From: Thermoanaerobaculia bacterium | GTDB taxonomy: Bacteria > Acidobacteriota > Thermoanaerobaculia > Multivoradales > UBA5704 | DNA: 64,000 bases | NCBI GenBank assembly: GCA_036275055.1 | Contig: DASUEN010000222.1 | Location: 26,498-90,497, forward strand | Direction: 5' to 3' | In this document: one piece after another, positions 44,633 to 62,867 of the stretch | Numbering within the stretch: the first letter of the stretch is position 1 | How the letters are laid out: every line of letters begins with the position of its first letter | Translations under genes and position numbers: made by a program | Notes under the pieces: generated by a model | The model's database searches: none | Told to the model about the DNA's origin: nothing | The model's input: the letters and a program-made list of their open reading frames with translations, nothing else

Positions 44633-45037
44633 CTACGCCACGTGCACCAGCACCTTGCGCGTGCCGGGGTGACGGCGATGCTCCCAGAGATAGATTCCCT
44701 GCCAGGTGCCGAGGCCGAGCTCGCCGTCCAGGATGGGGATCGCGAGTGAGGTCGCGGTGAGCATCGCCTTGATGTGCGAGGGCATGTCGTCCGGTCCTTC
44801 GGCGGTGTGAGTGTAAAGGGGATCGCGCTCGGGCACCAGGCGTTTGAGCCAGGCCTCCAAGTCGCGCCGCGCGGAAGGATCGGCGTTCTCCTGGATGGTC
44901 AGACTGGCCGAGGTGTGCTGAATGAACAGCGTGCAGAGACCCTCGCGGACGCCGCTCGCCCGTACGGCGTCGCGCACCTCGTTGGTGATCTCGTGAAGCC
45001 CCTGGCCGGGGCTTTTGTGGGAGAGCTTGGTGACCAT
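44633..45037 (-). CDS. yjbQ: YjbQ/UPF0047 family secondary thiamine-phosphate synthase-like protein
   Basis: 134 aa. CTLFIQHTSASLTIQENADPSARRDLEAWLKRLVPE...GTWQGIYLWEHRRH. Confidence 0.85.
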   Translation of the reverse strand: MVTKLSHKSPGQGLHEITNEVRDAVRASGVREGLCTLFIQHTSASLTIQENADPSARRDLEAWLKRLVPERDPLYTHTAEGPDDMPSHIKAMLTATSLAIPILDGELGLGTWQGIYLWEHRRHPGTRKVLVHVA

Positions 45038-48000: not shown

Positions 48001-48678
48001 GGACTGCTCGTCCGCGGCCCCTTGGGGTACGTTGCGCGCGGCGAGTGGCAGATACTCCTTCAGCCGGGTTTTCCTTTGAATCTCGTTCTGGATGTGCGAG
48101 AGGGAATCGCAGAGGTAGCCCTGGATCTCGGCTGCTTCCGGCGGCTCGGGCAGGGTTCCCAACCGAGTCAAATCCGAATGAAGCCGAGGGAAGAGGCGAT
48201 CCAGCAGATGGCGGATCAGCCCAGGCCGGACGAGAGAGTAGGAACGGATTTCCGGAGAAGCTCCCTTCGAGCGCAAACGGTCGAGGATCAGCGAGGCGAT
48301 ATCTCCCGGACTGTAACCTTGAATACCGACCCAGCCATCGATCGTGAGAAGTCCGGAAATAGGTGCTTCGTCGAAACGGAGCAGCAGAATCCGATCGGGA
48401 CGTTGTTTCTTGATGATTTCCCTGACCACTCTCCACTCGACGCCGCAGCACCACTCGCCGGCGGCATAGTCCGCGCTCAGAAAGGCTACGATCAGGGGCG
48501 ACTTCTCATAGATGGATTGGAGATAGACGTCCAGATCCGGCCGGCCCAGCTCGGCTTCGTGATCTCGATCGTAGAAAACCTGGCCTTCGCCGAGAGATCC
48601 TTCCAGCAGGTTGGCGACTTTCGAGACGACGTCGCGCTGCCTGCCGGCAAACGAGAGGGCGACAAGGGGCGGAGACAT
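45064..48678 (-). CDS. TIR-NACHT (STAND NTPase) protein with HEAT-like region and C-terminal multi-pass transmembrane domain
   Basis: 1204 aa. N-terminal TIR ALSFAGRQRDVVSKVANLLEG..VFYDRDHEAELGRPDLDVYLQSIYEKSPLIVAFLSADYAAGEWCCGVEW. Walker A LLGDPGSGKTMTL. Walker B RLVLLFDGMDEM. C-terminal about 400 aa holds about 8 predicted TM helices. GC is lower than flanking housekeeping DNA. Confidence 0.75.
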   Translation of the reverse strand: MSPPLVALSFAGRQRDVVSKVANLLEGSLGEGQVFYDRDHEAELGRPDLDVYLQSIYEKSPLIVAFLSADYAAGEWCCGVEWRVVREIIKKQRPDRILLLRFDEAPISGLLTIDGWVGIQGYSPGDIASLILDRLRSKGASPEIRSYSLVRPGLIRHLLDRLFPRLHSDLTRLGTLPEPPEAAEIQGYLCDSLSHIQNEIQRKTRLKEYLPLAARNVPQGAADEQSNDPFERPVQLLVRQVLGRSEGGDSASAQIAALDRRSRPVRNLVEKLLRSPDPLVLLGDPGSGKTMTLQEAARDLLKSEVRRVFPSVVVFVRLGEFHVEGRVGPEEVLDHVKRSAPERIRPWIDALDRQGRLVLLFDGMDEMSRDRYNEHTEALSVFAGSRSGRTRTLFSCRIADFSPSFIHRRLVLLAFDREQIALYLRRFLRVPSLEIDGTIWPLPRLARRLAAGELTVDATNPFTLWLLCLFLQAEKTWPTSRTQLLGYLYERSFERKQQESEEEGLPFPSRNEAFAAWARIAFVITDRNLGTAAGVEDLIEESAGSGEIERLQSLIRAGRSCGVLAESLPERPHLVRFAHHRFQEYFAALWIQKATPPIEWLVKLDAPRWQETMVNLVLMGGAEEGVTTLADSIKEITPELHQPYEPRWQSLHREEGRETRYKRESLLGDRVELGARLVRHGASRSQAVRERLRPCLQEAVETIAEQGRPITQVKMMRSCRNLAEIDLQSSLEKLLQSPVKWVRNQALIVLASQQEPYAGGADFATQMGLALADNSFFARFLAFAKAAKENRRLKPWLTFGVATAFGLLHLGIVLAAACALTETTLFLLRSTHDAGILKILGGLAHVQPGESLLPQVVAVLLTMGLSLRYRPIIVGFFCFGSAGLGLGLSQALPDLLRWKLGALDSFFGGFYIAACIALIPIPALAHLGTLAGYSFSTRRWRHSGYNTGAILKLPWEECHRLSVGLFGALIGIVTGSAALAFAIVFGSRKLHDLAVWLCRLLGLPYAKGTSELLVLTGLLLACWLVYRLLTGRYLPKRLERFIHSLSGGAVWLKKISREAVSDIGFPGYDKLIIGAIHLIVAGLIIFNVDLFRSISRYLIIAILALFLGASIAAIARPTARVLRRHLPMRSFRPSEWQSVLEKSSPHQQEDLLLRTRSQTLGLNPSEYLALLERIEPLIKEEPALSAYWDRRDQIEQSIRQERRG

Positions 48679-48723
48679 GGCTCGGGAACCTACTCTGGGA
48701 ACCGCGGCTTGTCCACACGGCGC

Positions 48724-48948
48724 CTAAACATCGAGATAGCTTCCGAACCGCTTCACCAGCTCCCGGATGAAGCTCCACTCCTCGGCGGAGGGATCGGCGA
48801 GGACGCCGTTGAAGCGCCAGCCGGCTTCGTAGCGCCGCAGCATGTCGAGCGGCTCGAGGTCTCGGTACTTGCAGTCGAACCAGGAAATGCTCTCCAGGAA
48901 AGGCAGTCGCTCAGGGATGGCGATCTCGAAGACGGGTCCGGCGGCCAT
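48724..48948 (-). CDS. small hypothetical protein (74 aa) immediately upstream of the TIR-NACHT gene
   Basis: ORF MAAGPVFEIAIPERLPFLESISWFDCKYRDLEPLDMLRRYEAGWRFNGVLADPSAEEWSFIRELVKRFGSYLDV. Same strand, 12 nt after the upstream small gene. Confidence 0.4.
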   Translation of the reverse strand: MAAGPVFEIAIPERLPFLESISWFDCKYRDLEPLDMLRRYEAGWRFNGVLADPSAEEWSFIRELVKRFGSYLDV

Positions 48949-48960
48949 GGGAGCATGGTA

Positions 48961-49290
48961 TCAGGTTCTGGCCGCCTTCAGGGTGCCGAGCGAAGTCAGG
49001 ACGCTCTGCGTTACGTCCCGGCCACCGTGGAAGTTCACCCAGACGGACTGGATGGTGTAGATCGGCCCCCAGGGGATTCCCCACCAGCCGGCGAGAAGGG
49101 AGAGCAGGGTGAAGCCGAGCCCTTGGGTTACGGCACTCTCGTTGGGGCGGACGTAATAAATGTCCGACGGCCGCTTGAACGTGATCACCAGTACCGAGAT
49201 GCAATATTGGTAGATCACGAACTTCGCGCCATGCTGAACCTCGAGTTGGATCTGTTCCTTCGTCGCTCCTTCGAGTCCCTTGATTTGCAT
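48961..49290 (-). CDS. small hypothetical protein (109 aa), first gene of putative 3-gene operon
   Basis: ATG 49290 with AAGGGGGA SD on minus. MQIKGLEGATKEQIQLEVQHGAKFVIYQYCISVLVITF...GWWGIPWGPIY. Confidence 0.45.
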   Translation of the reverse strand: MQIKGLEGATKEQIQLEVQHGAKFVIYQYCISVLVITFKRPSDIYYVRPNESAVTQGLGFTLLSLLAGWWGIPWGPIYTIQSVWVNFHGGRDVTQSVLTSLGTLKAART

Positions 49291-49541
49291 GCCCGGTCCC
49301 CCTTCTCAGTAGAGATGGATGGATCTCGTAGCACCTCACCGCGCGGCAGCGTGCAGCGGTGCCATCCGGCTGAGGCCAGTGTTATACGATTCCACATCTG
49401 ACTTTTGTTCATTGGTGCCACTTTTAGAATCCTCGGCCGGCGTCCTCTCTGGTTTCGCTGCTGGTTTCTCAGTCTTGCCTTATCTGTAGGCTCCCCGCCT
49501 CTGCCTTGCCGCCACCCTTTCCAACCACTCTTTTTCCAACG

Positions 49542-50285
49542 TTATGGCCGTGAGCGGTGGGGCCGCGCTTTTTGCGGTGCCGTCCGCTCGACGACCGGAG
49601 TTGGGCGCCCATTGTTCCCGAATCTCCAGAGGAAATACCCGCTTCCCCTCTGTACCTCTTCAAGCGGCAAGACTCGCTTGTAGTAGCTGACCAGATGTCT
49701 TAGTTCATGCTTGAAGAGTTGTTCTGCTGAGGGATCGCTGGGCTGATCGTCTGGCGCAGAATCGAACTGGAGGGGTACCGGCTGCATTACTGCAGCGTGC
49801 AGGCCGATCTTCTGCTGTAGGTATTCGGCGAGTGCTTTCGTGGCCTGGATACCAAGGCCGTTACCGGCGTACGAGGGACGCACCTCAAGCAGATGCATAA
49901 ATGCGATCGGTCCCAATCGAAGCATGCTAGTCACGTCTAGCTTGCGGGCGCTGAACAGAAGCGCGGCGAAATCGCAAAGTTCTTGGCTCTGCGCGTCACA
50001 GGCGTCGAAGAAGGTCCACCGGCTGACCTCTGCGTTCTCCTCAGTCTTCGCGAATATGTACCAGTGGAGATAACCTACGGCGACGCCATTCTGAGAATCG
50101 CGGATCTGCCCTTCGACCTCTTGAATTGAGATATCGTCCTCAAGCTCGTTCTCGATGTGAGCCAAATACCAGTTAAGGATTAGCCCAGGAGCAACGCTGA
50201 GCCTTTTGGAGCCGCGCTGTGGCGGAAGTTGCTCCCGTCGGTAGAACCCCAAGTGGTTACGCGAAGCAAGACGGGGGCTATTCAT
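49542..50285 (-). CDS. hypothetical protein, possible GNAT-family acetyltransferase
   Basis: 247 aa. VRPSYAGNGLGIQATKAL resembles the GNAT acetyl-CoA motif (Q/R-x-x-G-x-G/A). Lower-GC region. Confidence 0.4.
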   Translation of the reverse strand: MNSPRLASRNHLGFYRREQLPPQRGSKRLSVAPGLILNWYLAHIENELEDDISIQEVEGQIRDSQNGVAVGYLHWYIFAKTEENAEVSRWTFFDACDAQSQELCDFAALLFSARKLDVTSMLRLGPIAFMHLLEVRPSYAGNGLGIQATKALAEYLQQKIGLHAAVMQPVPLQFDSAPDDQPSDPSAEQLFKHELRHLVSYYKRVLPLEEVQRGSGYFLWRFGNNGRPTPVVERTAPQKARPHRSRP

Positions 50286-50901
50286 GAATCTGAAACCTTA
50301 AGGTGGCGCCGAACGTCTCAGAAGCTCACCGGCGACGACCGCACTATAGTGCGTGCTTGGCGGCGAAGCGATCTTGTCGCGAGATCCCCAACACCGTCCC
50401 GCTTCTCTCTCCCACTCTCCGGCTCCTCGAGTTCACGCCGCCACCAAAGCCGCACGAAAGGCATTCTACGAAATCTACGCCGCTTTCGTCAGCACTTTCC
50501 GTGAGGCGTCTGAGCGGCTGAGGCACGGTGATCGCAATGCGCCGTTCCCAGTCGGAAGCTTCCCGCCGGCCCTGCCCTTCGTGGCCGGATAGCAGCATCG
50601 CCGCCACTCTTTGACAGCCTCGTCGGCCGCCGAGGGCCACTCCTACGAGCTGATTCGCTCGCTTGAGTGGAGGTGTGCCCATTTCGGCCCGAAGTGGCTC
50701 GCTCCGGCCGCTGCCAGCACCCAATCCGCAGGTCCAAGCCCCGCACCAGCCGCGAAATCGTCTTGGGTTTCTAAAACTACGCTGGCACTTTTTACTCCGG
50801 GCACCTGCTATGCACTTCACCTTATTGACTCCCGCGCCATACCGAGAGATGCAATCGCTATCGAGAGTACTCCTGACGCACCTGAAGTTACCCGTGCGAG
50901 G

Positions 50902-53265
50902 TCACTTCCCAAGAAATATCTTGAGAGCACGCAAGAATGGTGCACCGTTCTCACTCTTACTAGAAGTCAGTGCCTGAAAAAAATCGCGATGCTTCCGCGT
51001 TTTCTGCACGCCCAGAGTTCGGAAGAACTCCAGTGCTACGCGTTCGGCAATCAAATCGCACGTCTGTCTCGCTTCTTCTGACAGAACTACTCCGTTTCTG
51101 TCTGCGGTCAAGGGCAATGCAAGAGGCGGAATGATGTTGATGTCGTAAGTGACAGGCAACGGGAAAGGCACAGTAGGCGGCTCTGAGTTGTGCGACCACG
51201 TAGAGCGCGATGGAAACAATGAATGACGCACCGTGAATCCATGCTGGCTCCAGCGTCCGGTAGAAGACGCATGAATGGAATAGCCATGGCTGATGCCTTC
51301 CTTGCTGGTGCGATCAACGTGCACATGCTCGATCGCCGACCATACATGACGGAGGCGGTCCGAGAGGTCCTCGCCATCCTCGCCAAATTCTTCCTCAAGG
51401 AACACCTCGTTAGTGAGGCCAGAAAGAAAATGAACACGCACTTCACCTTCAATCCCACTCTTCGGATCAAGCACAACGTCGACGTACGAGCAGCGTTCAT
51501 ACTCGTCACCCGCGCGTTGCACTGCCCAGCCTTGGGACAGTTGCGACGTTGCGCCATCGGGCTCGGCGACCTGAATGAGAACGTGCGTATGCGGAGCCAG
51601 AACCGCGACCGTAGAACTTAGCGTTGGCGTATCTTTGATACCGGACTTGAGCCACAGTTGCTTCGGGTCGGCGGATAAACGAACGGAGATATGCGTGCCC
51701 GGCGAAGCACGAGCGCTTTTATTGAACCAGAACAAACTGCCTTGGCTAGCGACCTGAATCGCAAGCGGCGTCGTATTGTTACCTATGCGTCGCGTGTCAA
51801 CCTCAAGCAGGTCTCCCACCATAAACACCGACAGAATACCGATCCCAAACTGAGAGACCGGCTTAAACTCCAACCCTACGCGTGCTCGGTGCTGCAAAAA
51901 CTCGCTAGACGTGTAATAGCTCCGGCCGACTCGCGCGAAGTAGTTGCGCACGATGGGTTCATCCATGCCCATGCCGTTGTCTTCTACGTCCATATACCAG
52001 TAACCGTCGCTCTGCCTACAACTCACTCGCACGATGGGCTCATACGGGCCGAGTTCAGGCTGGCGCCGGTGCAAAGCATCCCGGTGCCGACACGAATCTA
52101 CCGCATTTTGAAGCAACTCACGTAAAAACAGAATTGGCGTTCGATATAGATTCAACCCCATGAGGAGGCTGGTGATACGATCCTCATCCAACGAGAACCC
52201 GATATCGAGATACGTATACCGCGGCCCAGCCGGTCCGAACTCGGCACGAACGTCTACGGTCGAAACTTCCAGAGGTAAGTCTAGAGCATAGTGCGCCGAC
52301 AGAGCGTTCACGGCTGGGTCGTGCATGCCAGCAAGCACGCTGCGCACACCTCGAAGTTCCCGCTCGATCATTCGCACAAAGTCTCGGACACACTTCTCGA
52401 TGACCGGGTCTGAGCACTGTGCAGCAAATGCTATTCGCGTCGGCTGAATGTCCCAGGCCGTAATGGCTCGATGCTTCTTCCACTCTCTCACGCTTACCGA
52501 GTCACGGATCCCAAGGTGCTCAAACAGGACGGCCGGAGTGCGCTTGGGGTCGAAGTCCAGAATATCGGCGAGCCGAAGCACGCAAGCAACAAAACGCCAG
52601 TTGCAATACTCGCCACCCGCACGGACGAGTTCGCGCGCGGGTATCGCGTTGACGGAGGACGCGTCTTCATTATGACTGAAGCAGACATCTGCTAGCCGGC
52701 TGGTAAAGTTATAGTTGTCGTAGACGAGTTTGTTGCCATAGCTCTCAAAGAGCAGCTTGCTAGCGCGCGCAGCATGAGTTCTACGCAAGTACTCAACGAG
52801 AAGTCCAGCCTCGATCTCCTGAGCCTCGAAGTGACGCTCGGCATGCCTAAGGGAAGCTTGCCGCTTCAGGAGCCCTGGATATGCTTCTCGAAGCGCGAGG
52901 TACTGCTGTTTTTCCTCTATCGTCGGGTCTGCGTCTGAGGAGAGGAGCGCACGCACCTCAGCATCCGACGGCGCCATCCCAATATCATGGTAGGCCGCAC
53001 TCAATATCAGCGCAGCAAGTTCAAGAGCATCCAATTTGCTGAGCGTGCGCTCAGGAATGACGCGTCCCATGAGCCTGACGACCTCAACCAGATGCACCTC
53101 GTCATGCAAGGTGTACTCTGGCATATGCTTCACAACCGTCTTGGTCCGCTGGATGGCGTCGTCAAAGCATTCTTCGACGGTGAGCAGCAGTCGATTGGCG
53201 GCGCGGTCGTCGCTAGCCTTCGTAGCCAGGAGTTGGTAGAGCGTAAGGTCGCGCAGGGTGGACAT
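50902..53265 (-). CDS. HD-domain phosphohydrolase fused to GHKL/HATPase_c (Hsp90-like) ATPase
   Basis: 787 aa. HD: YTLHDEVHLVEVVRLM ... AALILSAAYHDIGM. Bergerat fold: LRELLQNAVDSC (N-box), MDVEDNGMGMDEPIVRNYFARVGRSYY (G1), QFGIGILSVFMVGD (G2). Low-GC island. Confidence 0.75.
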   Translation of the reverse strand: MSTLRDLTLYQLLATKASDDRAANRLLLTVEECFDDAIQRTKTVVKHMPEYTLHDEVHLVEVVRLMGRVIPERTLSKLDALELAALILSAAYHDIGMAPSDAEVRALLSSDADPTIEEKQQYLALREAYPGLLKRQASLRHAERHFEAQEIEAGLLVEYLRRTHAARASKLLFESYGNKLVYDNYNFTSRLADVCFSHNEDASSVNAIPARELVRAGGEYCNWRFVACVLRLADILDFDPKRTPAVLFEHLGIRDSVSVREWKKHRAITAWDIQPTRIAFAAQCSDPVIEKCVRDFVRMIERELRGVRSVLAGMHDPAVNALSAHYALDLPLEVSTVDVRAEFGPAGPRYTYLDIGFSLDEDRITSLLMGLNLYRTPILFLRELLQNAVDSCRHRDALHRRQPELGPYEPIVRVSCRQSDGYWYMDVEDNGMGMDEPIVRNYFARVGRSYYTSSEFLQHRARVGLEFKPVSQFGIGILSVFMVGDLLEVDTRRIGNNTTPLAIQVASQGSLFWFNKSARASPGTHISVRLSADPKQLWLKSGIKDTPTLSSTVAVLAPHTHVLIQVAEPDGATSQLSQGWAVQRAGDEYERCSYVDVVLDPKSGIEGEVRVHFLSGLTNEVFLEEEFGEDGEDLSDRLRHVWSAIEHVHVDRTSKEGISHGYSIHASSTGRWSQHGFTVRHSLFPSRSTWSHNSEPPTVPFPLPVTYDINIIPPLALPLTADRNGVVLSEEARQTCDLIAERVALEFFRTLGVQKTRKHRDFFQALTSSKSENGAPFLRALKIFLGK

Positions 53266-53546
53266 TTGAAGCGAGCTTACAGCAACGCTGCCATGCCACG
53301 CAACTTCAACGATCGCTGATCCGTCGAGCGGAGAGGGCGCGCTGCCGCCTTACGCGGTCGACTCGTGACCCGCGCTGCGGCCCCCCGATGCGTTCAAAGA
53401 ATTCCCATTTTGACGGCGATAGCCGCGCCACCTGGGGCAACCGTGTCGGCCGGTCATGCCAGGCTGGGAGTTCAACACCTCGTCCGCCCAACGCCTTGAC
53501 GCCTCACCGATGGACGGCGGAGACGGCCGCTCGGTGCAGGCGGGGG

Positions 53547-54260
53547 TTAAGCGGTGCCACGGCCTCGACTTGCGCCGGTATGCTGAAAGTTGTATAGTGT
53601 CTTTCGGCTAGGAAGAAGCTCTTCTGGGTAGGCTCCACCCTCCAGGATCTGCGAGCTTTCCCAGAAGCTGCCAGACGCCTCGCAGGCCATGAGCTGCACC
53701 TGGTTCAACAAGGGCTTGATCCGGATGACTGGAAGCCCATGACCAGCGTGGGGCCCGGTGTCCAGGAGCTGCGGATACACACCGGCGTGGAGCATCGGGT
53801 CTTCTACTTGGCGAAGTTCGAAGAAGGAGTATAGGTAGTTGCCTTCCAGGTATGGATCACCGCGCAGGTCAATGTAGACCTTTCCTCGTAGGATTGAGGT
53901 AGCCGCCTCTCTCCAGTCACCTGACCGAAGTAGGGGAACGAACTTCCTGTCGTTGCGTTCAGTCATCACTTCGGCCGTAATGATATGTCCTTCGTAGCCG
54001 ACGCCACCTATGCGTCGATCTGACTTCTCTTTGTACTTAGGAGTGCAGACCATGAGGACGAAGTCACTGTCTCGTATTGCAGTTTCCATAAACTGAGGCA
54101 GCTGATCCCCGGGAGCAACCTTCCACTCGTCCAAGATCAGATCGATGCCGTCACTGCGGAGACGGGCACCAAGCCTCTTGACCCATTCCTTATGCTCCTC
54201 GCTATCCCACGAGTACGAGATGAATGCCGTGGGTATCTGCTTAAGAAGTTCGCTTGTCAC
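53547..54260 (-). CDS. TIR-domain protein (bacterial TIR_2-like)
   Basis: GTG start at 54260; no in-frame ATG nearby. AFISYSWDSEEHKEWVKRLGARLRSDGIDLILDEWKVAPGDQL..FMETAIRDSDFVLMVCTPKY = canonical TIR core. 237 aa. Sits upstream of the HD-GHKL gene on the same strand with a 281-nt gap. Confidence 0.7.
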   Translation of the reverse strand: MTSELLKQIPTAFISYSWDSEEHKEWVKRLGARLRSDGIDLILDEWKVAPGDQLPQFMETAIRDSDFVLMVCTPKYKEKSDRRIGGVGYEGHIITAEVMTERNDRKFVPLLRSGDWREAATSILRGKVYIDLRGDPYLEGNYLYSFFELRQVEDPMLHAGVYPQLLDTGPHAGHGLPVIRIKPLLNQVQLMACEASGSFWESSQILEGGAYPEELLPSRKTLYNFQHTGASRGRGTA

Positions 54261-54410
54261 GGTCGACTCTTGTGCCGTTTAACGGGATCGGGCCTGGCGC
54301 CGCCAAGCATCCGCTTGAGGCCCTGTGTTAGGCGTCGGGCCACAAGCGGTGATGTTTTGCATGTGTTGCATTACTGCAACCCGATGCGACCGCGGCTAGC
54401 AGCCGTCATC

Positions 54411-54800
54411 TCAGTGCCTCGTAGAAGGTGTGCACGAAACTGTGCATGCGGAATACGGCGAAAGGCTCTCAAGCTGCCAGCCCTGGTCATAAAGTCTGTA
54501 GACGATCATGAGATTCGTGCTTAGTACGCAAGGTGTACCGTAGAATGGATCCTCGCTTTCGAGGTTGACGGCTGCATAGATCGTATCATTACCGGCGCGC
54601 CGGTTTGTAGATCGCCGTATCAGCTGCCAGCTGCTGACTGCCTGGACGGTGTTGACGTGCGGTATGAACTGGTTGCCGCAGCGGAGTTGCTGCCCGACCA
54701 GGTCAGCTTGCATGCGGGTTTCGCTGGTTAACGGTCTCAGGTAGCCGCAGTCGAGGAGAAGCAACGCGGTTCCTAAGAGAGCAACTTTCCACTGGATCAT
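54411..54800 (-). CDS. hypothetical secreted protein
   Basis: ATG 54800 with GAGGA upstream (track start 54812 is TTG). MIQWKVALLGTALLLLDCGYL signal-like. 129 aa. Confidence 0.35.
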   Translation of the reverse strand: MIQWKVALLGTALLLLDCGYLRPLTSETRMQADLVGQQLRCGNQFIPHVNTVQAVSSWQLIRRSTNRRAGNDTIYAAVNLESEDPFYGTPCVLSTNLMIVYRLYDQGWQLESLSPYSACTVSCTPSTRH

Positions 54801-54889
54801 TGGCGTCCTCAATAAGTCAGAAATAGAGCAGGCGATGATCCCTGCGTTTAGTCTTAAGTTCGCCCTCGGCTACTACGTTGCCGGCCGAC

Positions 54890-56988
54890 GCCGCCGAGTA
54901 GGCCAGGGGCCCTTACGGGCCCCCAGCCCCTCTAAGAACCGTACGTGCGAGTTTCCCCGCATACGGCTCAAGCCTTTCAGAAGGCCGATTGCTCGACCCG
55001 GCTGTTGGGTTGTCCGGGTTGACTCGTTCCATGGCCGTGAGTGGTTTCCTACGAGCTCGGAGCCCGAGCCGGCCTTGACGCTTCCGCAGCCAACGCTGGT
55101 AGAAGTACTCGTCGTAGGCAGGATCGTACTCCCTGGCTTCGGCTCGTATCTTAACATGCCGGCGAATCGGCATGCTACTCACCCGAAACAGGTCCAGAGA
55201 CCCCCAGGTCCCGTCCCGGTTCCGGAGAGGCGCCGTGAAGGTCCACCGACCGGAGGGCTCGATGCGGAAGTATTTCTGTCGCACCCAGCCTTTCCCCTTG
55301 GTGGGGTGCCTTCTCTTCGCCCATCGCCATAGAGCTTCGAAGACGCGCTTATCTACATATCGAAAGGCCCGACTGGAGACCAGGTGTCTCTGGCTGTTCG
55401 CCCAACCTCGCAGCTTGCTGTTGAGCCGGCGAATCAAGTCCAGAGCCGTGGCCGCCTTCTGGGTTCGGATCACTTCCCGGACATTCCGCAGCAGACCCAG
55501 GACGTTGTCCTTCGACGGCCTGATCAGCAGCTTGCGTCCATACTTCCGGACGTTGGCTCCGAGAAAGTCGAATCCAGCCTCGATCTGCGTGATCTTCGTC
55601 TTCTCCTGTGAGAGATTCAGACCCCGTTCTGCGAGGAAGGCAGCTACCGCAGGCAAGACTTTCTCCTCCAACTGCTCTCGCGAGCGGCCGGTGATGACAA
55701 AGTCGTCTGCGTAGCGCACCACGTTGATCTTCGGGCGGAGGTTCCCCTGACGGCGGGAATCCGCCTGCAAGGCCACCGTTTCCAGGCCATCCAAGGCTAG
55801 GTTCGCTAGAACCGGGGAGATGATTCCTCCCTGGGGCGTACCTTCCTCGGTCGAATAGAGGACCGGGCCTTCCATGTAGCCGGCCTTCAGCCATTTCCGC
55901 AGGATGTCGCGGTCCATTTGGACGTTGCCGAGCAGCCAGCGGTGGCTGATCCGATCGAAGCAGGATTCGATATCCCCTTCGAGGATCCACTGGGGAGAAT
56001 CCTCTTTGGCCAACGCACAGTAGCACTGGCCCAAGGCATCGGCGGTTGAACGCCGCGGCCGGAAGCCGTAGGAGTTCAGGTCGGCCTGGGTTTCCGCCAC
56101 CGGAAGCAGCGCCAGCAGGTGAAGCGCCTGCATGGCTCGATCCTTCATCGTAGGGATTCCCAGGGGCCGACGCTTGCCGTTCCTTTTGGGGATGTAGAGC
56201 CTGCGCAGAGGCAGTGGCTTGTAGCCAAACCGCCTCAGAGATCGGGAGGCCTGCATCTTCTGCCGAGGCGTTTTCCAGAGAACCTTGTCAACGCCCGGCG
56301 TACGTTTCCCTTGATTGGAGACAACCCTTCGCACCGCCCAGAGCTTTGCCGCCCATGAGCGGGTGAGGAGCCGCTGGAGAAAGTGGACCTTGCCCCAGCA
56401 CTTCTCGTGTACAGCCTTTGCGATACGCACCTGCAGCCGTCTGACCTTACGGAAGATGGCACGCCAGTCGATGGCGTTCCAGTTCTCTCGCCAGACCGGG
56501 AGTGCACCGGCGTCAAGCGCCTCTCTTTGCTCTCTCCCTTTCCAAGACGGTTCCACAAGCTCTCTCGCAACGAAAGACCTGTCGGACGTGGGCTCACTTT
56601 CGTGCCGGGTAACGTTGAAACCCGTATCCGCCCCATTACAGGACGGCCTTCGCTTCTTCCGACATCCCAAGCCCGCACCTCCGTCAGTTCCCCTCACGGG
56701 TCGCCTTCCCTTTACGGGAGGAGATACAGGGTTACCACGTTCCGCTCCTGAAGTCTGTGCGGGGTTAGGTACCTGCTGTCGACCGGGAAGCGCTGTTGAC
56801 CACGAGGTGGCACCGTTAAATCCACCTCCGGCTTCCGCGCCTTTTGGCTCAAGCTTATCAGCCACTTTAGCTCGTGCTCCATGACGGTCGTTGCACAGGT
56901 TCACATGCGTTTACCCTACCCGCTACCTAGCCATCGCCCGGCTCGTGGCTGCCAGGAGAGCAGGTTCCTCACGGTCCCTGCCCCGCAC
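54890..56988 (-). mobile_element. bacterial group II intron (about 2.1 kb) with intron-encoded RT/maturase
   Basis: 5' end GTGCG on minus strand (complement of plus 56984-56988). Canonical domain V GAGCCGTATGCGGGGAAACTCGCACGTACGGTTC at 54936-54969 (minus). Domain VI hairpin with GTAA tetraloop at about 54895-54930. Domain I-like sequence (GAGCCAAAAGGCGCGGAAGCCGGAGGTGGATTTAACGGTGCC) upstream of the ORF. Confidence 0.8.
54913..56556 (-). CDS. group II intron reverse transcriptase/maturase (IEP)
   Basis: Likely GTG start about 56556 (VEPSWKGREQ... precedes the NWNAIDWRAIFRKVRRLQVRIAKA thumb-0 motif). RT motifs include YADDFVITG; maturase X domain. No En domain. The frame stays open through domain V/VI to 54913. 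The track ORF 54913..56904 over-extends at the N-terminus into domain I. Confidence 0.8.
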   Translation of the reverse strand: MEPSWKGREQREALDAGALPVWRENWNAIDWRAIFRKVRRLQVRIAKAVHEKCWGKVHFLQRLLTRSWAAKLWAVRRVVSNQGKRTPGVDKVLWKTPRQKMQASRSLRRFGYKPLPLRRLYIPKRNGKRRPLGIPTMKDRAMQALHLLALLPVAETQADLNSYGFRPRRSTADALGQCYCALAKEDSPQWILEGDIESCFDRISHRWLLGNVQMDRDILRKWLKAGYMEGPVLYSTEEGTPQGGIISPVLANLALDGLETVALQADSRRQGNLRPKINVVRYADDFVITGRSREQLEEKVLPAVAAFLAERGLNLSQEKTKITQIEAGFDFLGANVRKYGRKLLIRPSKDNVLGLLRNVREVIRTQKAATALDLIRRLNSKLRGWANSQRHLVSSRAFRYVDKRVFEALWRWAKRRHPTKGKGWVRQKYFRIEPSGRWTFTAPLRNRDGTWGSLDLFRVSSMPIRRHVKIRAEAREYDPAYDEYFYQRWLRKRQGRLGLRARRKPLTAMERVNPDNPTAGSSNRPSERLEPYAGKLARTVLRGAGGP

Positions 56989-57411
56989 GCTTGCGCGTGC
57001 CTCTGTACATTGTCAGGGCCGCTCTTTATTCAGGCCCCTAGGTTCACCCGGTGGTACGGGTGGTTTCACCTCCTACTTCGAGAGAAACAACTTCATATTA
57101 AGAGCGACATTGTGTCGCAGTAACGCCTCTGAAGCTCACCGGGCGGCAAGTGCGCAAAGCGCGGTTGCCGCCCGGTGTAGCGCTGTGGTTGGCCGTCCCT
57201 CCTTGAAACTGCCTAATAATTGCACAGACTGCTGGCTTTTCAAGGAGAGGTTAGCCTTTCTGTATATGGAATTGTTGGTCACCGATTCCCAAGTTTTAGT
57301 TCTTGGAGAGTACGTCCAACGTTGTTAGACTTAAAGTCCTCAGCCCGTTTGCTTACATCTGCTGCCACCATCTTCCATTGCTTGTCGAACGGGTCATATT
57401 TAAGGAGAACT

Positions 57412-57993
57412 TTAAGGCGCCGGTCCCGAGCATGGTCCCAACCTCGGGCTCTCGAAGGCCGCTGACATTTCATCCGGCACGTCGTAAGTATACGTCCCAA
57501 GCACCACTCTATATCGATCCGTTCCCACAACTTCCTCATCGTTGGAAACGATGCTCTCGATCTTTATGGTAGCAACTTTCGTGAACAGCTCATCGAAGTC
57601 GCCATTATGCTTGATAGTGCCGGCCTTACCGCCGCCCTCAGTTAGTTTGATCGTCGCAGTCTTCCTGACACCGCTCTGAGTAAGGCTGAACCAATCGTTC
57701 CAACCGCTGAAATTCTGCGTCAGATCCTTAACATTGCCGATAGTGATCACGCCTTTCTTTGCAAAGGCTTGGTACAAAGGCCACTCACTGATAGATTCTC
57801 GGCCTTTCGCTGCGTCTGGATTCTCAGCGACGAACTTCACCTCACCCAGCATCAACCCAACGTCTGGCTTATTCCAGAGATTCTCTATCAAATTCCGTGC
57901 TTCGCCATCTCCAAGGGCATCGGACCGGGAACAATAACTCAGGGCGACTGCGCTAACAACAATACCTACCAGGCGTAAACTTCGTCCAATCAT
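57412..57993 (-). CDS. hypothetical secreted/lipoprotein-like protein
   Basis: ATG 57993 with AGGAGA SD on minus. MIGRSLRLVGIVVSAVALSYCS signal. 193 aa. Low-GC island. Confidence 0.45.
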   Translation of the reverse strand: MIGRSLRLVGIVVSAVALSYCSRSDALGDGEARNLIENLWNKPDVGLMLGEVKFVAENPDAAKGRESISEWPLYQAFAKKGVITIGNVKDLTQNFSGWNDWFSLTQSGVRKTATIKLTEGGGKAGTIKHNGDFDELFTKVATIKIESIVSNDEEVVGTDRYRVVLGTYTYDVPDEMSAAFESPRLGPCSGPAP

Positions 57994-58435
57994 CGTATCG
58001 TCTCCTGTACAACTGAACTCGTGGCCAACCTCAAGATCAACTGTATCCGGCTCCTCCCCAATGCCTTCCCGACAGTCTCCACGTCTGCTCAGGCTACCGG
58101 TGAATGGGATGTATATCATTCATTCTATGGAGTGTAAGCATTGTACACCGATCCCTAATCCTCGTCAACGTTGGTTGGGTTGTCGGGTTGGAGCCTGGCC
58201 GCGCGGAGCGGCACAAAACTTAGCCAGACCGGTTTCCGGTGGCCTATTCTACTGATGAGAATGAAGTTAGCACCGCCCGTACCGGCTAAGCGGTTCGAAG
58301 TGCGGGGCGAGTGGAACGTTATCCGACAAAGGAGTGTCGGGTTTGCAGCTCATGGTTGGTGCTAAGCTCAATGGAATGAGACTCATCGGCTGAGCTGGCG
58401 CGATGATTGACCGACACGACGCCTGTCGGCTAAGG

Positions 58436-58739
58436 GCTCGTCACAGAATAACTGTGCCAGTTTGCGTCCGGCCCAACGGGCCTGGATACCTTAGCCCAGG
58501 GCCGAGGCCGAAGGCCGATGCCCTGGGAAAAAGGCGCCCCATCGGTGCGGCCTGAAGGGCCGCAAATCGTTTCGACAAGAAGAGTATCGCTGCCCTTCAG
58601 GCCGCACTGCTTTGGGATCCTGCCACCCAGGGCGTCGGCCTTCGGCCTCGGCCCTGGGCTAAGGTATCCAGGCCCGTTGGGCCAGACGCCCTAGTAGGAC
58701 TGAGCTCCGGGGAACTGGCGCAGTTATTCTGTGACGAGC
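58436..58739. repeat. about 300-bp near-perfect palindrome: two about 95-115 nt inverted arms (about 95% identical apart from a 22-nt indel) around a spacer with a nested 16-bp IR
   Basis: Arm 1 58436-58527 and arm 2 58627-58739 are reverse complements. The inner IR GTGCGGCCTGAAGGGC / GCCCTTCAGGCCGCAC is at 58544-58607. Each arm also has internal hairpins (CCCAGGGC...GCCCTGGG; GGCCCaacGGGCC). Confidence 0.8.
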
Positions 58740-58809
58740 CCTAAGAGGCCGTCGCCAAGCCGACAGAGGAATGGGAGGGGCCTTTCTCGGCGCGCCAAGC
58801 CGGTCAAGC

Positions 58810-59012
58810 TACAGGATGTCCACGGGGCTCCTTACGCCACGCCCGTCTCGGTTGAGCACGCGGGTGTAGATCATCGTCGTTTTCACGGTCTTGTGACCCA
58901 GGAGCTCCTGCAGGGTCCGGAAGCGGAGCTCGTTGCCTTCGGGACGCCGGCGCTCCCAGGCAATGGCCCTCGGACAGGTTTTGCCGGAATGGACGTTCCT
59001 TGAGGAGGGGTG
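58810..59012 (-). pseudogene. C-terminal remnant of an integron-integrase-like tyrosine recombinase (IntI/XerC-like)
   Basis: The minus frame between two in-frame TAG stops translates to ...[40 protein letters not shown]. This is very similar to the IntI C-terminus (LGHSDVSTTMIYTHVL..GGAGVRSPLD). No start codon, and the upstream 250+ aa are missing. Confidence 0.6.
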
Positions 59013-59132
59013 CTACCCTCCCCTGGCCGCCTCAGGGAGTACGAGGCTCCGGTTCTCTCCTCGTTCCGGGGTCCGAGCTGCGTAGCAAGCTCCCGAGCTC
59101 ATGGGTTGAGGCTCCGCAACAGTGTTCCTGGA

Positions 59133-59360
59133 ACCAAACACATTGTAGGAGCTTCCCAACACATTGTGGTAGCGTTCCCCAACAATGTAGTTCGGCCCAG
59201 CAACAATGTGGTTGGGCTCACCAACAATGTGTTTCGGCCCAGCAACAATGTTGGGGAACCAAAACACATTGTTGCTGGCGCTCCCCACATTGTGTTTTGG
59301 CTCTCCCACAATGGGTCGGGCCCCAGCAACAATGTGTGCAGCCGCTCCAACATTGAGGCG
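59133..59360. repeat. iteron-like array: 11 copies of a 21-bp repeat with (C/A)ACAATGT / ACATTGT core in mixed orientation, perfectly phased
   Basis: Cores at 59140, 59161, 59182, 59203, 59224, 59245, 59266, 59287, 59308, 59329, 59350. Spacing is exactly 21 bp. The ACAATGT and ACATTGT cores are reverse complements of each other. Confidence 0.8.
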
Positions 59361-59458
59361 GGAGGTTTTTTCACCAGGGTGGGACGCTGCACCGACGTGG
59401 GGAAGCCCGCTTCCATTGGGTGCGGCGAGTTTTTCAATGGGATGAAGCGGTGACCGCT

Positions 59459-59866
59459 TCACAGCTCCGAGGATGCTGTGTCGAGTCCTAACTCCAGCTC
59501 CTCTTGAAGCCGCTGGCGCAGCTCGCCGGGTGCGAGGAGGAGGCCGGGATCCTCCGGGGTGGGGAAGAGGGCGACGCGCAGGGCATCTTCCGCCAGCAGG
59601 GGGAGGAGGTCTTCCAGGAGGTCTTCGAGCGCGATCGGGGCCGGCTCGGCGCCTTCCCAGTTGCCGCGGGCACAGGCTCTCGCCAGCTCGGGATGGGGCC
59701 AGAGGGGGAAGGCGTCCATCTCCTTGGACACCACCCAGCCGCGATCGTCCTGGAGCCCCCAGACCTCGTCCCAGTCGGCGGCGAGCTGCACGAGGTGGAC
59801 GGCCCGGTCCGCGGCGGGCAGGGCCTGGAGCGTGCGGAGCTCGCCGTCGCCGGTCTCCCAGCTCAT
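59459..59866 (-). CDS. small acidic hypothetical protein, co-transcribed downstream of the NYN-domain gene
   Basis: 135 aa. MSWETGDGELRTLQALPAADRAVHLVQLAADWDEVWGLQDD... Start 7 nt after the upstream stop. Confidence 0.5.
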   Translation of the reverse strand: MSWETGDGELRTLQALPAADRAVHLVQLAADWDEVWGLQDDRGWVVSKEMDAFPLWPHPELARACARGNWEGAEPAPIALEDLLEDLLPLLAEDALRVALFPTPEDPGLLLAPGELRQRLQEELELGLDTASSEL

Positions 59867-59872
59867 CGCGGA

Positions 59873-61525: not shown

Positions 61526-61802
61526 TCAAACCTCCGCGAAAGGATCCGTTCCGCGCCGCCTGGCATGGGCCGGCGGCGTTGTGCGGCAAAGATATCAGGA
61601 GCCCCACATAAGTCGATCCCCGGCGGCCCCCTTCTTTGGACAGAACACGCGGAGAGGCTCCGGCATTGCCAGGAACGCGCGAAGCCAGGAACCAATTTCG
61701 CGCCTCCCCCCTCTAATCACACTAGGAGCGCTCCGAACGAACCCCTCGCAAAGCGGCGAGGACGAAGCGAGGAAAACTGAATCCGGGACCTGGAGGTGGA
61801 TC

Positions 61803-62582
61803 ATGTTCGAGCACTCTCTCATCGACCTTGAAGCAAAGCCTAAGCCACGCCGCTGGCTCTCTCTGCCCATCGCCGTCGGCCTGCACGTGGTGGGGATCAC
61901 CGCTTTCGCCTTCGCCAGCTACTGGAACGTGGGCTCGGTGCCGGAGCCCCAGGTGGCCGACGTGTTCGTAGTGAGCCTGCCGCCGCCTCTGGCGGGTGGC
62001 GGCGGGGGAGAAAAGCCCAAGCCGCAGCCTCAGGAGCAGAAGAAGCAGGCGGCGGAGCCGGAGCCTCAGAAGACCGTGCAGCCGAACCTGGATAAGATCC
62101 CCGAGAAGCCGGCGGCGCCGGCCGCGAACGATACGATCCAGGATCTCCGTCCCGCCGGCCCGGGACCGAGTGATCCCAGCACCGGCTGCGAAGGCTGCCC
62201 TCCTGGCCCGGGTATTGGCCCCGGCCCCGCCGGCCCCGGAGACAAACCCGGTGTGGATCCTGGCCCCGGCATCGGCGTCGGCGACACCATGCCCATTCAC
62301 CTCTCCGTGGGCATGACGAAGCCGGAGGTCATCCACCAGGTGCAGCCCCGCTATTCCGAGATGGCGCGCCGGGCGGGAGTCCAGGGAACGGTGATCGTGG
62401 AGGCGGTGATCGACGCGCAGGGCCAGGTCACCAACGTGCGGCTGCTCCGCGGCCTTCCCATGGGGCTCGACCAGGCTGCCGTGGACGCCATCCGCCAGTG
62501 GCGCTTCAAGCCGGCGCAGCTCGACGGCCACCCCGTGAAGGTGTACTTCACGCTGACGGTGAACTTCAGCCTGCAGCGCTAG
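61803..62582 (+). CDS. TonB family energy-transducer protein
   Basis: GGAGGTGGA SD, ATG 61803. N-terminal TM helix. Pro-rich spacer. C-terminal TonB domain (GTVIVEAVIDAQGQVTNVRLLRGLPMGLDQAAVDAIRQWRFKPA). 259 aa. Confidence 0.8.
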   Translation: MFEHSLIDLEAKPKPRRWLSLPIAVGLHVVGITAFAFASYWNVGSVPEPQVADVFVVSLPPPLAGGGGGEKPKPQPQEQKKQAAEPEPQKTVQPNLDKIPEKPAAPAANDTIQDLRPAGPGPSDPSTGCEGCPPGPGIGPGPAGPGDKPGVDPGPGIGVGDTMPIHLSVGMTKPEVIHQVQPRYSEMARRAGVQGTVIVEAVIDAQGQVTNVRLLRGLPMGLDQAAVDAIRQWRFKPAQLDGHPVKVYFTLTVNFSLQR

Positions 62583-62700
62583 ACGGCAGGGCCCTTTCTT
62601 CCCGGTTCCCCACCAACCTGCCCCGCGGTGCGAAAGCCCCGCGGGGTAGCACGTTGTAGGGGGTATTTGGCGAATTCGGTCGCGACGGCCGGCCTCCCCC

Positions 62701-62824
62701 GCCCGGGCATAAATACCCGGGCTAAGAACGACGCCGGATGAATCCGGCTTGCAAAGTCCCCTTCTCAGGGAGAAGCCCCCTTGAGGGGGCGCTGTTCATA
62801 GCCCCGGCATTTATGCCCGGGCGA
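62701..62824. repeat. structured intergenic element: 22-bp inverted repeats (GCCCGGGCATAAATACCCGGGC / CCCGGCATTTATGCCCGGGC) flanking three consecutive short hairpins
   Basis: IR arms 62701-62722 and 62803-62824. Internal hairpins GCCGGAtgaaTCCGGC, CTTCTCaggGAGAAG, GCCCCCttgaGGGGGC. Lies between convergent tonB-like and PP2C genes. Confidence 0.6.
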
Positions 62825-62867
62825 AGGTGGGTGCCGCGACTGGGTTGCGCACTTTCCAGCTACCCTC

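Follow-up and report, generated by a model that had tools for sequence, protein, structure and literature searches.

A foreign low-GC gene array with attC-like hairpins in an acidobacterial genome: probably a decayed chromosomal integron

CALIN arrays accompanied by intI pseudogenes are on record (PMC4889954), and atypical integrons in which intI is co-oriented with the cassettes were described in Treponema (PMC3607928). Integron cassettes may encode phage defence proteins and acetyltransferases (bioRxiv 10.1101/2024.07.02.601719, PMC10661359), and there is a precedent for a sense-oriented intron with a 5′-UUGCG end adjoining an attC (PMC7923331). The locus described here lies in a 64,000-nt stretch from a Thermoanaerobaculia bacterium, hereafter the window, to which all positions refer (Table 1). 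Its low-GC gene array, designated layer B, probably represents a decayed chromosomal integron.

Foreign DNA between YjbQ and DUF2750

Twelve related genomes (Thermoanaerobaculia or Holophagales) have YjbQ 2-57 nt after DUF2750, whereas in the window the two genes are 14.4 kb apart. The gap was empty in these 12 relatives and held other genes in about 20, and comparison with them delimited the variable gap as a whole to 45038-59486, which appears from these gene neighbourhoods to be a recurrent insertion hot spot of Thermoanaerobaculia and Holophagales. Since the relatives carry the same flanking genes around an empty or otherwise filled gap, and since the composition also deviates, the horizontal acquisition proposed by an earlier, sequence-only reading was borne out: the low-GC stretch is inserted foreign DNA, and the gap holds two independent acquisitions, layers A and B.

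A two-breakpoint likelihood segmentation placed the low-GC block at 45000-59500. The drop in GC that had been estimated by eye at about 50-55% is real, although the mean is slightly higher, namely 0.572 for 49300-58400 and 0.576 for 49300-59450 (0.50 to 0.64 per 400-nt window), and 57.7% for the low-GC stretch overall versus 67.6% (1-44500) and 69.2% (59451-64000) in the flanks. GC3 was 0.56-0.66 in the island core genes versus 0.85-0.92 in backbone genes, with intermediate values for TIR-NACHT (0.75; 0.746), p109 (0.79) and p74 (0.84). The correlation of GC-normalised tetranucleotide usage with the backbone, used as a signature measure, was 0.864 ± 0.049 in backbone windows and 0.51-0.71 in the 49-61 kb windows (z = -3.1 to -7.2). 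GC, GC3 and tetranucleotide usage are thus all off the backbone.

Layer A contains a TIR-NACHT ORF of 1204 aa (45064-48678; GC 0.617), and the homology of relatives stops exactly at the YjbQ start codon (45037) beside it. Its relative P0242 (79% aa and 81% nt identity) is found in unrelated contexts, and their nucleotide homology covers exactly 48715-45065. Layer A occupies the place that AbiEii has in relatives, behind the conserved p74, a gene present in about 13 of them, mostly followed by an AbiEii-family gene, and without a match in Pfam or NCBIfam. A single TIR-NACHT gene unit would have replaced AbiEii behind p74; layer A is a gene-sized swapped unit. The suspicion that this gene was compositionally atypical was right, and it concerns a separate, milder event, in which a gene-sized unit retains a native-like oligonucleotide signature (r = 0.87 for its region).

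For layer B, homology to relatives ends at 48965-48991 and restarts at 59487-59492, which defines the junctions to ± 3 nt. The island read by eye at 49300-59450 is therefore real, with its edges moved to 48992 and 59486. The insertion supplies the last nine codons of DUF2750 (59459-59486). No tRNA was found, and the search for flanking direct repeats suggested by the earlier reading returned none around layer B.

Table 1. Coordinates of the features of the locus and the evidence for each.
Feature	Position	Strand	Evidence
YjbQ (UPF0047), conserved left flank	44633..45037	-	Pfam PF01894, E = 1.3e-44
Layer A, TIR-NACHT-transmembrane gene with 37-nt leader, 3.65 kb	45065..48715	-	TIR_2 and NACHT domains
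p74, conserved 74-aa hot-spot gene	48724..48948	-	83-86% nt identity to L003, L006
Ancestral DUF2750 stop region and p74 leader, stranded beyond the insertion	48949..48991	-	aligns with 'GGCACCCTGA ... CCTGATACCATG' in L010, L011, L027, L032
p109, small membrane protein	48961..49290	-	ORF; last 9 codons cross the left junction
Layer B, foreign block in last DUF2750 codons, 10.5 kb, GC 0.577	48992..59486	-	homology and composition
attC-like element, degenerate R′ box	49318..49387	-	R2 64.5 bits, training sequence
attC-like element ending the GNAT-like gene, GCCCAAC...GTTGGAA	49534..49606	-	R2 28.5 bits, E ~2.5e-6, untrained
GNAT-like gene, 247 aa	49542..50285	-	Acetyltransf_1 (Pfam), E = 0.0025, weak, below cut-off
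Weak attC-like element with empty copy of the intron insertion site (CCGGTGAGCTTCTGAGACGTT^CGGCGCC)	50308..50380	-	R2 13.9 bits
Second weak attC-like element	50501-50564		R2 18.1 bits
HD-CE phosphohydrolase with HSP90-type GHKL ATPase, 787 aa	50902..53265	-	PF24391, E = 3.6e-56
attC-like element GCTTAAC...GTTGGGC	53486..53552	-	strict pattern scan; R2 66.8 bits, training sequence
Short SEFIR/TIR protein, 237 aa	53547..54260	-	PADLOC bSEFIR, E = 6.6e-59; TIR_2, E = 1.1e-22
attC-like element GCCTAAC...GTTAAAC	54277..54333	-	strict pattern scan; R2 44.4 bits, training sequence
p133, small protein (133 aa), signal-like or lipobox-like N terminus	54411..54812	-	ORF
Complete group II intron (± 2 nt)	54894..57120	-	Rfam RF02012 at 56930-57063, RF00029 at 54893-54971
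attC-like element cut by the intron at GTT^	57117..57194	-	R2 52.3 bits, trained on intron-less reconstruction
p235, lipoprotein-like gene	57412..58119	-	ORF; likely start 57993 (193 aa)
Nested palindrome, 316 nt	58430..58745	.	arms 33, 64, 19 nt, 94-97% complementarity
IntI-type tyrosine recombinase C-terminal stub, ~42 aa	58812..58937	-	TIGR02249
21-nt repeat array	59119..59370	.	12 copies, palindromic ACAWTGT core
DUF2750, right flank	59459..59866	-	PF11042, E = 3.3e-24

Genes, integrase stub and hairpins of layer B

Every component that had been listed by eye was recovered: the GNAT-like, HD-GHKL and TIR genes, the mini-protein, the intron, the lipoprotein, the palindrome, the integrase remnant and the repeat array. 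What had been taken for mobile-element debris is present, but it is more ordered than that term implies, consisting of an integrase stub followed by genes that share one orientation, interspersed with attC-like hairpins of a single family. As an integron, layer B would comprise cassettes in the order p235, p133, bSEFIR/TIR, HD-CE with the HSP90-like domain, GNAT-like, an ORF-less unit and p109.

The GNAT-like protein presents a motif-A-like segment (residues 125-164). Residues 355-551 of the HD-CE protein match the HSP90 N-domain (HSP90 and HtpG in NCBIfam, TRAP1 and HSP90 in the PDB), and its homologues are distributed across scattered phyla, the best with 60% identity. The SEFIR/TIR match covers positions 36-173 of the 412 of the bSEFIR profile, the C-terminal 240 being absent. 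Family searches gave no match for p133 or p235, and both start forms of the latter (235 and 193 aa) are on record. The palindrome folds as DNA at -157 kcal/mol (z = -23) and is unique within the window and the loci fetched for comparison. Judging by their domains, the TIR, NACHT and HD-CE genes may act in defence against phages, with TIR depleting NAD+ after an infection signal.

The stub matched the integron integrase model TIGR02249 best (E = 2.2e-12 versus 4e-6 for XerC) and, by tblastn, the integrase of another locus, L048. It would have been transcribed towards the cassettes, as in atypical 'inverted' integrons. Only 42 aa survive, without the region for the IntI-specific insertion; the fetched DNA yielded no full-length intI, and neither an attI site nor a Pc promoter was identified. 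Loss of the integrase would have frozen the array, which would in effect be a CALIN (attC cluster without integrase, a term of IntegronFinder). The 21-nt array sits where the remaining integrase gene would be expected.

Each of the genes from p235 to the GNAT-like gene is followed by a hairpin of 57-78 nt with RYYYAAC...GTTRRRY ends, and five elements of this length share the pattern GCYYAAC-CC-GGCCTCA-CCGG...CGGTGAGG..AAGGC-GTTGGSC. The stop codon TAA of the GNAT-like gene directly precedes R′ of its element, and that of bSEFIR lies inside R″. In the proposed structure, 86% of cells are paired versus 27-40% in slid controls. Compensatory changes are seen at five of the pairs. The element at 53486 aligns full length with the L048 element, and the one at 49318 is 82% identical over 50 nt to the L048 element that separates the two TIR genes there. 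The empty insertion-site copy at 50308 matches repeat D12 at 19/21 nt, and a 3′-exon match lengthens it. The hairpins were searched for in 1.47 Mb, and in a further 0.51 Mb serving as control, with a covariance model of our own (R2), trained on four sites of the window, whose scores are therefore circular. Above 23 bits, R2 sites occurred only in low-GC gene arrays (the window, L048 and L032), and no site above 14 bits was found in the window outside layer B. In L032, five regularly spaced, co-oriented sites each lie 8-50 nt past a small ORF. These hairpins are probably attC sites recombined by an IntI. Of the seven sites, two score weakly (14-18 bits), the strict pattern alone yields at least two loci in about 5% of shuffles, and the folding of single hairpins exceeds that of shuffled sequence by little (z between -0.5, for the 54277 element, and -2.2).

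The group II intron is complete, sense-oriented and located inside one attC-like hairpin. It carries an RT-maturase ORF (~54913-56570; RVT_N, RVT_1 and GIIM domains), presents a YUGCGAC 5′ end and matches a Serratia plasmid intron up to 57119. When the exons were rejoined, the GGCCAAC/GTTCGGC pairing of the interrupted element was restored, with a fold of -42 kcal/mol. Its retrohoming, with the R′ box of an attC as target and in sense orientation, would be a later event.

Competing explanations for the insertion

It is rather unlikely that layer B represents a generic defence island, brought in by an integrative element with a tyrosine recombinase that targeted the 3′ end of DUF2750, maybe IS91-associated as in L048, and decayed since then, with hairpins that are terminators or lineage-specific intergenic repeats instead of attC sites. 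Such an origin is suggested by L048, where a low-GC island breaks DUF2750 at the same point, to the codon, and contains an IS91-linked integrase, which also fits the integron-integrase model best, an IS91 Y2 transposase and two TIR genes, all within 37-nt direct repeats; in both islands DUF2750 gains a new short tail, as in site-specific integration at gene ends. However, the window holds no Y2 transposase remnant and layer B no flanking direct repeats, its hairpins have the RYYYAAC/GTTRRRY ends and are always gene-oriented, one per gene, and in L032 they are regularly arrayed although no element of this kind is present.

It is less probable still that the gap was filled by homologous recombination through the NYN-DUF2750 and YjbQ-VWA flanks after DNA uptake, site-specific machinery playing no part at this locus and the integron array being a passive passenger. 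NYN is 89-93% identical among relatives, the gap contents vary gene by gene, the TIR-NACHT edges are gene-exact without a recombinase, and a p109 homologue (65% identical) is also present at this hot spot in L038. Nevertheless, the left junction of layer B falls in the old DUF2750 stop region and not in a long common flank, and the TIR-NACHT relative lies between unrelated genes, so that flank homology cannot explain its move. This explanation concerns DNA delivery only and is compatible with the integron reading of layer B.

An assembly or binning chimera is barely conceivable: the window does come from a MAG contig, and Logan contigs break within TIR-NACHT and the 21-nt array, but syntenic flanks on both sides would require two false joins, and the independent Logan contigs of run SRR25158407 reproduced every junction, L001, L215 and L002 spanning those at 45038-45065, 48715, 48992 and 59487 with 100% identity.

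Likeness to described systems

The gap resembles the cDHS of Pseudomonas aeruginosa (PMC10250203) and the hot spots of E. coli (PMC10121019) in its conserved flanks and variable contents, with known defence genes among them (AbiE in relatives; TIR, SEFIR and NACHT here). It differs from both in being tiny, empty in a third of genomes and embedded in a string of co-oriented genes; most occupants are one or two genes, and a large island occurs only here and in L048. The layer A protein shares with the bacterial NACHT (NLR-related) antiphage proteins (PMC12169576) a TIR N-terminal effector and a NACHT NTPase whose Walker A and B motifs are intact, whereas its C-terminal part is a multi-pass membrane region, matched by sequence to no solved structure. 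The short SEFIR/TIR protein resembles the PADLOC bSEFIR by its strong profile match, here to the N-terminal third of the profile only. The intron shares with IIC-attC introns the insertion at an attC-type hairpin; those enter the bottom strand and so run antisense to the cassettes, whereas this one has sense orientation and interrupts the R′ box behind its GTT.

The integron reading of layer B draws on several likenesses. First, co-oriented, mostly one-gene units ending in attC-type hairpins are found in CALIN and sedentary chromosomal integrons (Cury et al. 2016, PMC4889954), and mutually similar hairpins in chromosomal integrons. Second, the stub lies beside the array and points the same way, as in CALIN with an intI pseudogene. 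Third, as in integrons, an acetyltransferase-like gene is found among the cassettes together with unknowns and genes of defence type. On the other side, the array comes from an acidobacterial MAG, no more than a short stub is left of the integrase, the HD-CE cassette of 3.2 kb is large for a cassette, the spacers between stop codon and attC are partly long (218-338 nt), and attC recognition relied on our own model and not on the published one. Layer B would be an ordinary type of element, a decayed integron with candidate anti-virus genes, here in a little-studied phylum.

Two layers of inserted DNA at a hot spot shared across the lineage

The window belongs to a MAG of the Thermoanaerobaculia (Acidobacteriota), on a contig of 102,731 nt whose proteins include HEX4964420-27, and the insertion between YjbQ on its left and DUF2750 on its right is real, horizontally acquired and two-layered, in a hot spot found across the lineage. 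Layer A is a TIR-NACHT unit and layer B a 10.5-kb foreign block; p74, p109, p133 and p235 are small genes named by their length in amino acids. Independently assembled contigs of run SRR25158407 matched the window at 100% identity and spanned the YjbQ/TIR-NACHT, TIR-NACHT/p74, p74/p109 and 21-nt array/DUF2750 junctions, so that the island structure is not a chimera. Nucleotide homology to relatives stopped at the YjbQ start codon (45037), returned at 48720-48965 over p74 (83-86% identity) and again from 59487-59492 within DUF2750, and to the left of the larger insertion 'GGCACCCTGA...CCTGATACCATG' aligned with the relatives' DUF2750 stop region and p74 leader. These breaks, together with the stop-region alignment, indicated that layer B entered the last codons of DUF2750, which in the window ends in a new, island-encoded tail of nine residues. 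The same break was observed in L048, a Holophagales genome with a second low-GC island, in which the new tail is likewise supplied by the island. The sequence-only reading had set the edges at 49300 and 59450; comparison with relatives confirmed the insertion but moved them to 48992 and 59486 (± 3 nt). Neither the flanking direct repeats that it had proposed to seek nor a tRNA-adjacent position, both known from genomic islands, was found: no direct repeat of at least 14 nt flanks the island, whose junctions share at most AGGAC/GTCCT, no tRNA gene lies in the 64 kb window, and a search of the junctions for a target-site duplication returned none that was convincing.

GC content was 0.676 (1-44500) and 0.692 (59451-64000) on the two sides, compared with 0.572 at 49300-58400. 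The drop perceived by eye is therefore real, but its mean of 50-55% was slightly low, since 400-nt windows inside the island ranged from 0.50 to 0.64, and its start lay too far to the right: two-breakpoint likelihood segmentation placed the low-GC block at 45000-59500, with the TIR-NACHT gene inside it, so that the block begins about 4 kb further left. GC3 values fell into three classes, namely backbone genes (0.85-0.92), an intermediate set of p74 (0.84), p109 (0.79) and TIR-NACHT (0.75), and the six core island genes (0.56-0.66). The GC-normalised tetranucleotide correlation with the backbone was 0.864 ± 0.049 in backbone windows, 0.51-0.71 (z = -3.1 to -7.2) in the windows of 49-61 kb, and a native-looking 0.87 in the TIR-NACHT region. 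Composition and codon usage unlike the rest of the genome, seen in GC, GC3 and tetranucleotide usage alike, are those of a genomic island and, with the site empty in 12 relatives, bear out the horizontal acquisition proposed earlier. Elsewhere in the window, the most atypical backbone tetranucleotide signature (r = 0.68) belonged to a DUF11 / IPTL-CTERM gene with a strong GC skew (+0.10 to +0.16), adjoined by an ECF sigma factor gene.

One genome per species was scanned with an NYN alignment, which yielded 80 loci; a scan of genome contigs with the VWA protein alone had found no relative. Among three VWA orthologue contexts, one reads VWA-YjbQ-DUF2750-NYN-TonB-SpoIIE with YjbQ abutting DUF2750, and two have the 74-aa gene and AbiEii in the gap. 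The flanks were conserved in about 35 Thermoanaerobaculia or Holophagales loci, and the DUF2750-YjbQ gap measured 2-57 nt in 12 genomes and about 950-1075 nt (p74 + AbiEii) in some ten others, whereas in the remaining loci it held p74 alone, a cytochrome-c-like gene or small membrane proteins, or else other genes amounting to 3.8-6.2 kb. The gap of the window, at 14,421 nt, was the largest among the compared loci. A p109 homologue (65% identity) lies in the gap of locus L038, and none of the core island genes was present in any relative compared (about 35 loci with conserved flanks). Conserved flanks around variable, defence-enriched contents are those of a core defence hot spot. It also houses non-defence genes, among them small membrane proteins and the secreted cytochrome-c-like gene (143-160 aa, motif YRVYCQNCHG) that recurs in the gap of L019, L021, L022, L024 and L030.

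The conserved p74, which has no family assignment, stands upstream of AbiEii in about ten relatives, alone in L029, before the cytochrome-c-like gene in L019 and before TIR-NACHT in the window, where AbiEii is absent and the AbiE toxin-antitoxin pair is accordingly not represented; it may be a short AbiE partner outliving its toxin, or a module serving different effectors. The 550-aa NYN protein is 89-93% identical among relatives (neighbouring VWA, 69-75%), which is unusually strong conservation for a protein without a known role, and has orthologues at 42-49% identity in Chloroflexota, Geomonas and Myxococcales.

The TIR-NACHT protein of layer A combines a TIR_2 domain (E = 2.8e-8) with a NACHT domain (E = 9.7e-12) whose Walker motifs are intact, and ends in a C-terminal multi-pass membrane region. 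An NACHT NTPase with an N-terminal effector domain is the architecture of bacterial antiphage NACHT proteins, and such a role is predicted here from the domains; among its relatives, the N-terminal domain is exchanged among CHAT, SEFIR, PNP, trypsin and SMEK. The closest relative (79% amino acid identity) is flanked by unrelated genes in another assembly, and nucleotide homology to it (81%) spans exactly the ORF and its leader, the same segment that has no homology to the hot-spot relatives. Layer A is a unit of the size of one gene and contains neither a recombinase nor an attC-like end. In contig L212, two inverted copies of the TIR-NACHT relative stand head to head about a central palindrome, probably an assembly artefact.

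Features of the window and of comparison loci, numbered where they belong to the minus-strand order of layer B
Order	Feature	Coordinates	Strand	Remarks
	DUF11 / IPTL-CTERM gene	23588-27085		1165-aa surface protein
	ECF sigma factor gene	27150-27848		
	Layer A	48715-45065		TIR-NACHT ORF + 37-nt leader
	p74	48724-48948		
	Layer B	48992-59486 (± 3 nt)		
1	Integrase stub			
2	Nested palindrome	58430-58745		
3	p235		minus	Lipoprotein-like; no family match
4	attC-like site	57194-57117	minus	Intron-interrupted
	Intron domain I region	56930-57063		Rfam
	Intron domains V and VI	54893-54971		Rfam
5	p133		minus	Signal-like N terminus; no family match
6	attC-like site	54333-54277	minus	
7	SEFIR/TIR protein, 237 aa		minus	PADLOC bSEFIR, E = 6.6e-59, profile positions 36-173 of 412 only
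8	attC-like site	53552-53486	minus	
9	HD-CE-ATPase, 787 aa		minus	HD-CE domain fused to HSP90-type GHKL ATPase; HD, N-box, G-box motifs present
10	Two weak attC-like sites		minus	
11	GNAT-like protein, 247 aa		minus	Under Pfam cut-off
12	attC-like site	49606-49534	minus	
13	ORF-less unit			
14	attC-like site	49387-49318	minus	
15	p109		minus	
16	Left junction			
	Uninterrupted intron target	50308-50335		
	21-nt array	59119-59370		12 copies
	NYN gene	59873-61525		550-aa protein; relatives in L010-L054
	p74 in relatives	L010 5047-5271; L029 12030-12269		Examples
	attC-like array	L032 16117-18770		Five elements
	Unit with TIR genes	L048 14634-20213		
	Inverted TIR-NACHT pair	L212 389-8106		
	Similar 21-nt arrays	L090 6282-6533; L138 4061-4333; L193 8425-8609; L197 546-797		12-13 copies

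attC-like hairpins and the proposed cassette order of layer B

The most probable reading of layer B is a decayed array of integron cassettes. When a strict pattern for attC was applied (RYYYAAC, 40-150 nt, GTTRRRY, stable fold), it occurred in just two places in 64 kb, one on either side of the SEFIR gene, and is weak by itself, as about 5% of shuffled sequences also gave two loci and the fold z-scores of single sites ranged from -0.5 to -2.2; a relaxed AAC...GTT scan was dropped as non-specific in high-GC DNA. This initially weak case was strengthened by the homology found in L048 and by the building of a covariance model. Downstream of the GNAT-like gene, a stretch of 50 nt showed 82% identity to an element that separates the two TIR genes in L048, and the aligned attC-like sites formed a single family with 5′ and 3′ halves in common, in whose consensus hairpin 86% of cells were paired versus 27-40% in slid controls, with five compensatory pairs. 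The model, trained partly on window sites whose own scores are thus circular, was run over 1.47 Mb of relatives and 0.51 Mb of unrelated loci, where non-training matches above 23 bits were confined to low-GC arrays. Among them, the relative L032 contained five non-training sites, regularly spaced and co-oriented, each 8-50 nt past a small ORF. That array (spacing 510-710 nt, ORFs without known function) occupies a region of 52-60% GC adjoining VWA, with an IS630-like DDE transposase inserted within it.

In the window, a non-training site at the end of the GNAT-like gene scored 28.5 bits and, with filters off, two weak sites appeared between HD-CE and GNAT-like, no match above 14 bits being found outside layer B. 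Altogether, five sites scored at least 28 bits, and these, as well as the two weak ones, lie on the minus strand. An integron or CALIN is defined by at least two attC sites that lie within 4 kb of each other, have the boxes R″ RYYYAAC and R′ GTTRRRY and fold into an imperfect hairpin, and by our own model this definition applies. The cassette organisation, with an attC after each co-oriented ORF, is seen as well: an attC-like element stands after p235, p133, bSEFIR, HD-CE and GNAT-like, as in L032.

Homologues of the HD-CE-ATPase are patchily distributed over many phyla (best identity 60%). The pairing of HD-CE and TIR as an operon was rejected, as no conserved TIR neighbour was seen in three homologue contexts, and a literature search for 'HD-CE' returned nothing pertinent, only unrelated medical papers. 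The defence roles of the layer B cargo are predictions from domain content only.

The intron, the integrase stub and neighbouring repeats

The hairpin between p235 and p133 is interrupted by a group II intron, recognised by domains V and VI, by a region of domain I and by the RT-maturase ORF within domain IV, which carries RVT_N, RVT_1 and GIIM domains with the YADD motif intact in translation. Homology to an intron of Serratia plasmids extends to 57119 and defines the 5′ end as YUGCGAC; in the plasmid collection, the intron RNA region alone had matches, the right end of the island having none there. The 5′ exon (CCGGTGAGCTTCAGAGGCGTT) and the 3′ exon (CGGCGTC) match an uninterrupted copy within the window and, when joined, re-form a hairpin of attC type (fold energy -42 kcal/mol). 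The 21-nt repeat D12, considered as possible att sites, was rejected because it corresponds to the intron 5′ exon and the empty target copy.

The integrase stub comprises only the last 42 aa; its match to the final 36 positions in the integron-integrase model (E = 2.2e-12) is better than that to XerC (E = 4e-6). No intact intI bearing the extra domain specific to IntI is present and, with only these 42 aa left, the element is not a complete integron; attI sequences, for their part, are lineage-specific. The stub, being short, may alternatively derive from an IS91-linked recombinase like that of L048, which also matches the integron model best, but no remnant of a Y2 transposase was found in the window, on which ground an IS91 origin appears less likely. 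The L048 recombinase, a tyrosine recombinase, belongs to a 5.5-kb unit between 37-nt direct repeats (89% identical) that also contains an IS91-family Y2 transposase, a 178-aa gene and two TIR genes. This unit has the appearance of a small integrative element whose cargo is TIR genes, and it lies within the low-GC island at the same hot spot.

The 316-nt nested palindrome lies 66 nt past the stub (DNA fold -157 kcal/mol, z = -23) and had no second copy in the window or the comparison loci and no match in the plasmid collection. The 21-nt array, with a palindromic ACAWTGT core and a 42-nt super-period, stands at the position expected for the lost portion of the integrase gene. Arrays that share its period and core, and whose unit closely resembles its own ('ACATTGTAGGAGCTTC' identical over 16 nt), were found in ordinary intergenic chromosomal DNA of low-GC bacteria, on contigs of about 40% GC. 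A LytTR-domain gene lies 280 nt from one of them, and LytTR sites likewise show a 21-bp period; the action of a LytTR regulator on the array of the window was rejected, as no LytTR homologue is encoded there.

Significance and comparison with known systems

Integron cassettes have recently been shown to carry phage-defence genes, mostly in Proteobacteria, and this picture would be broadened by an uncultured acidobacterial lineage whose cassette array carries TIR/SEFIR and HD-CE-ATPase genes. It is possible, if doubtful as a whole, that Thermoanaerobaculia have an integron lineage of their own, marked by a distinctive attC family, that the DUF2750-YjbQ gap is a landing pad for arrays and single immune genes, that 5′-YUGCG introns home in sense into the R′ box (GTT^), and that the HD-CE-ATPase and the short SEFIR protein are candidate cassette-borne immune genes. 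If so, sense homing into the attC R′ box would constitute a second attC-targeting intron strategy, distinct from that of IIC-attC introns. Layer B yields a few compact genes that are candidates for a role in immunity, the attC family and its covariance model offer a handle for finding further arrays in the phylum, and the intron within an attC, together with its empty target copy, provides a clear case from nature of retrohoming into the boundaries of cassettes. No principle is altered by these findings, which describe a well-resolved instance of known processes.

Layer B is a known kind of element, resolved in some detail in an unusual host. Its order of genes and hairpins matches that of a CALIN with an intI pseudogene (PMC4889954), and the orientation of its stub that of the atypical co-oriented integrase arrangement (PMC3607928). 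Group IIC-attC introns occupy the bottom strand of the attC and run antisense to the cassettes (PMC3001079), whereas the intron of the window shares the strand of the genes and thus falls outside that group. In this sense orientation it is similar to the 5′-UUGCG intron UHB.I2, reported beside an attC (PMC7923331).
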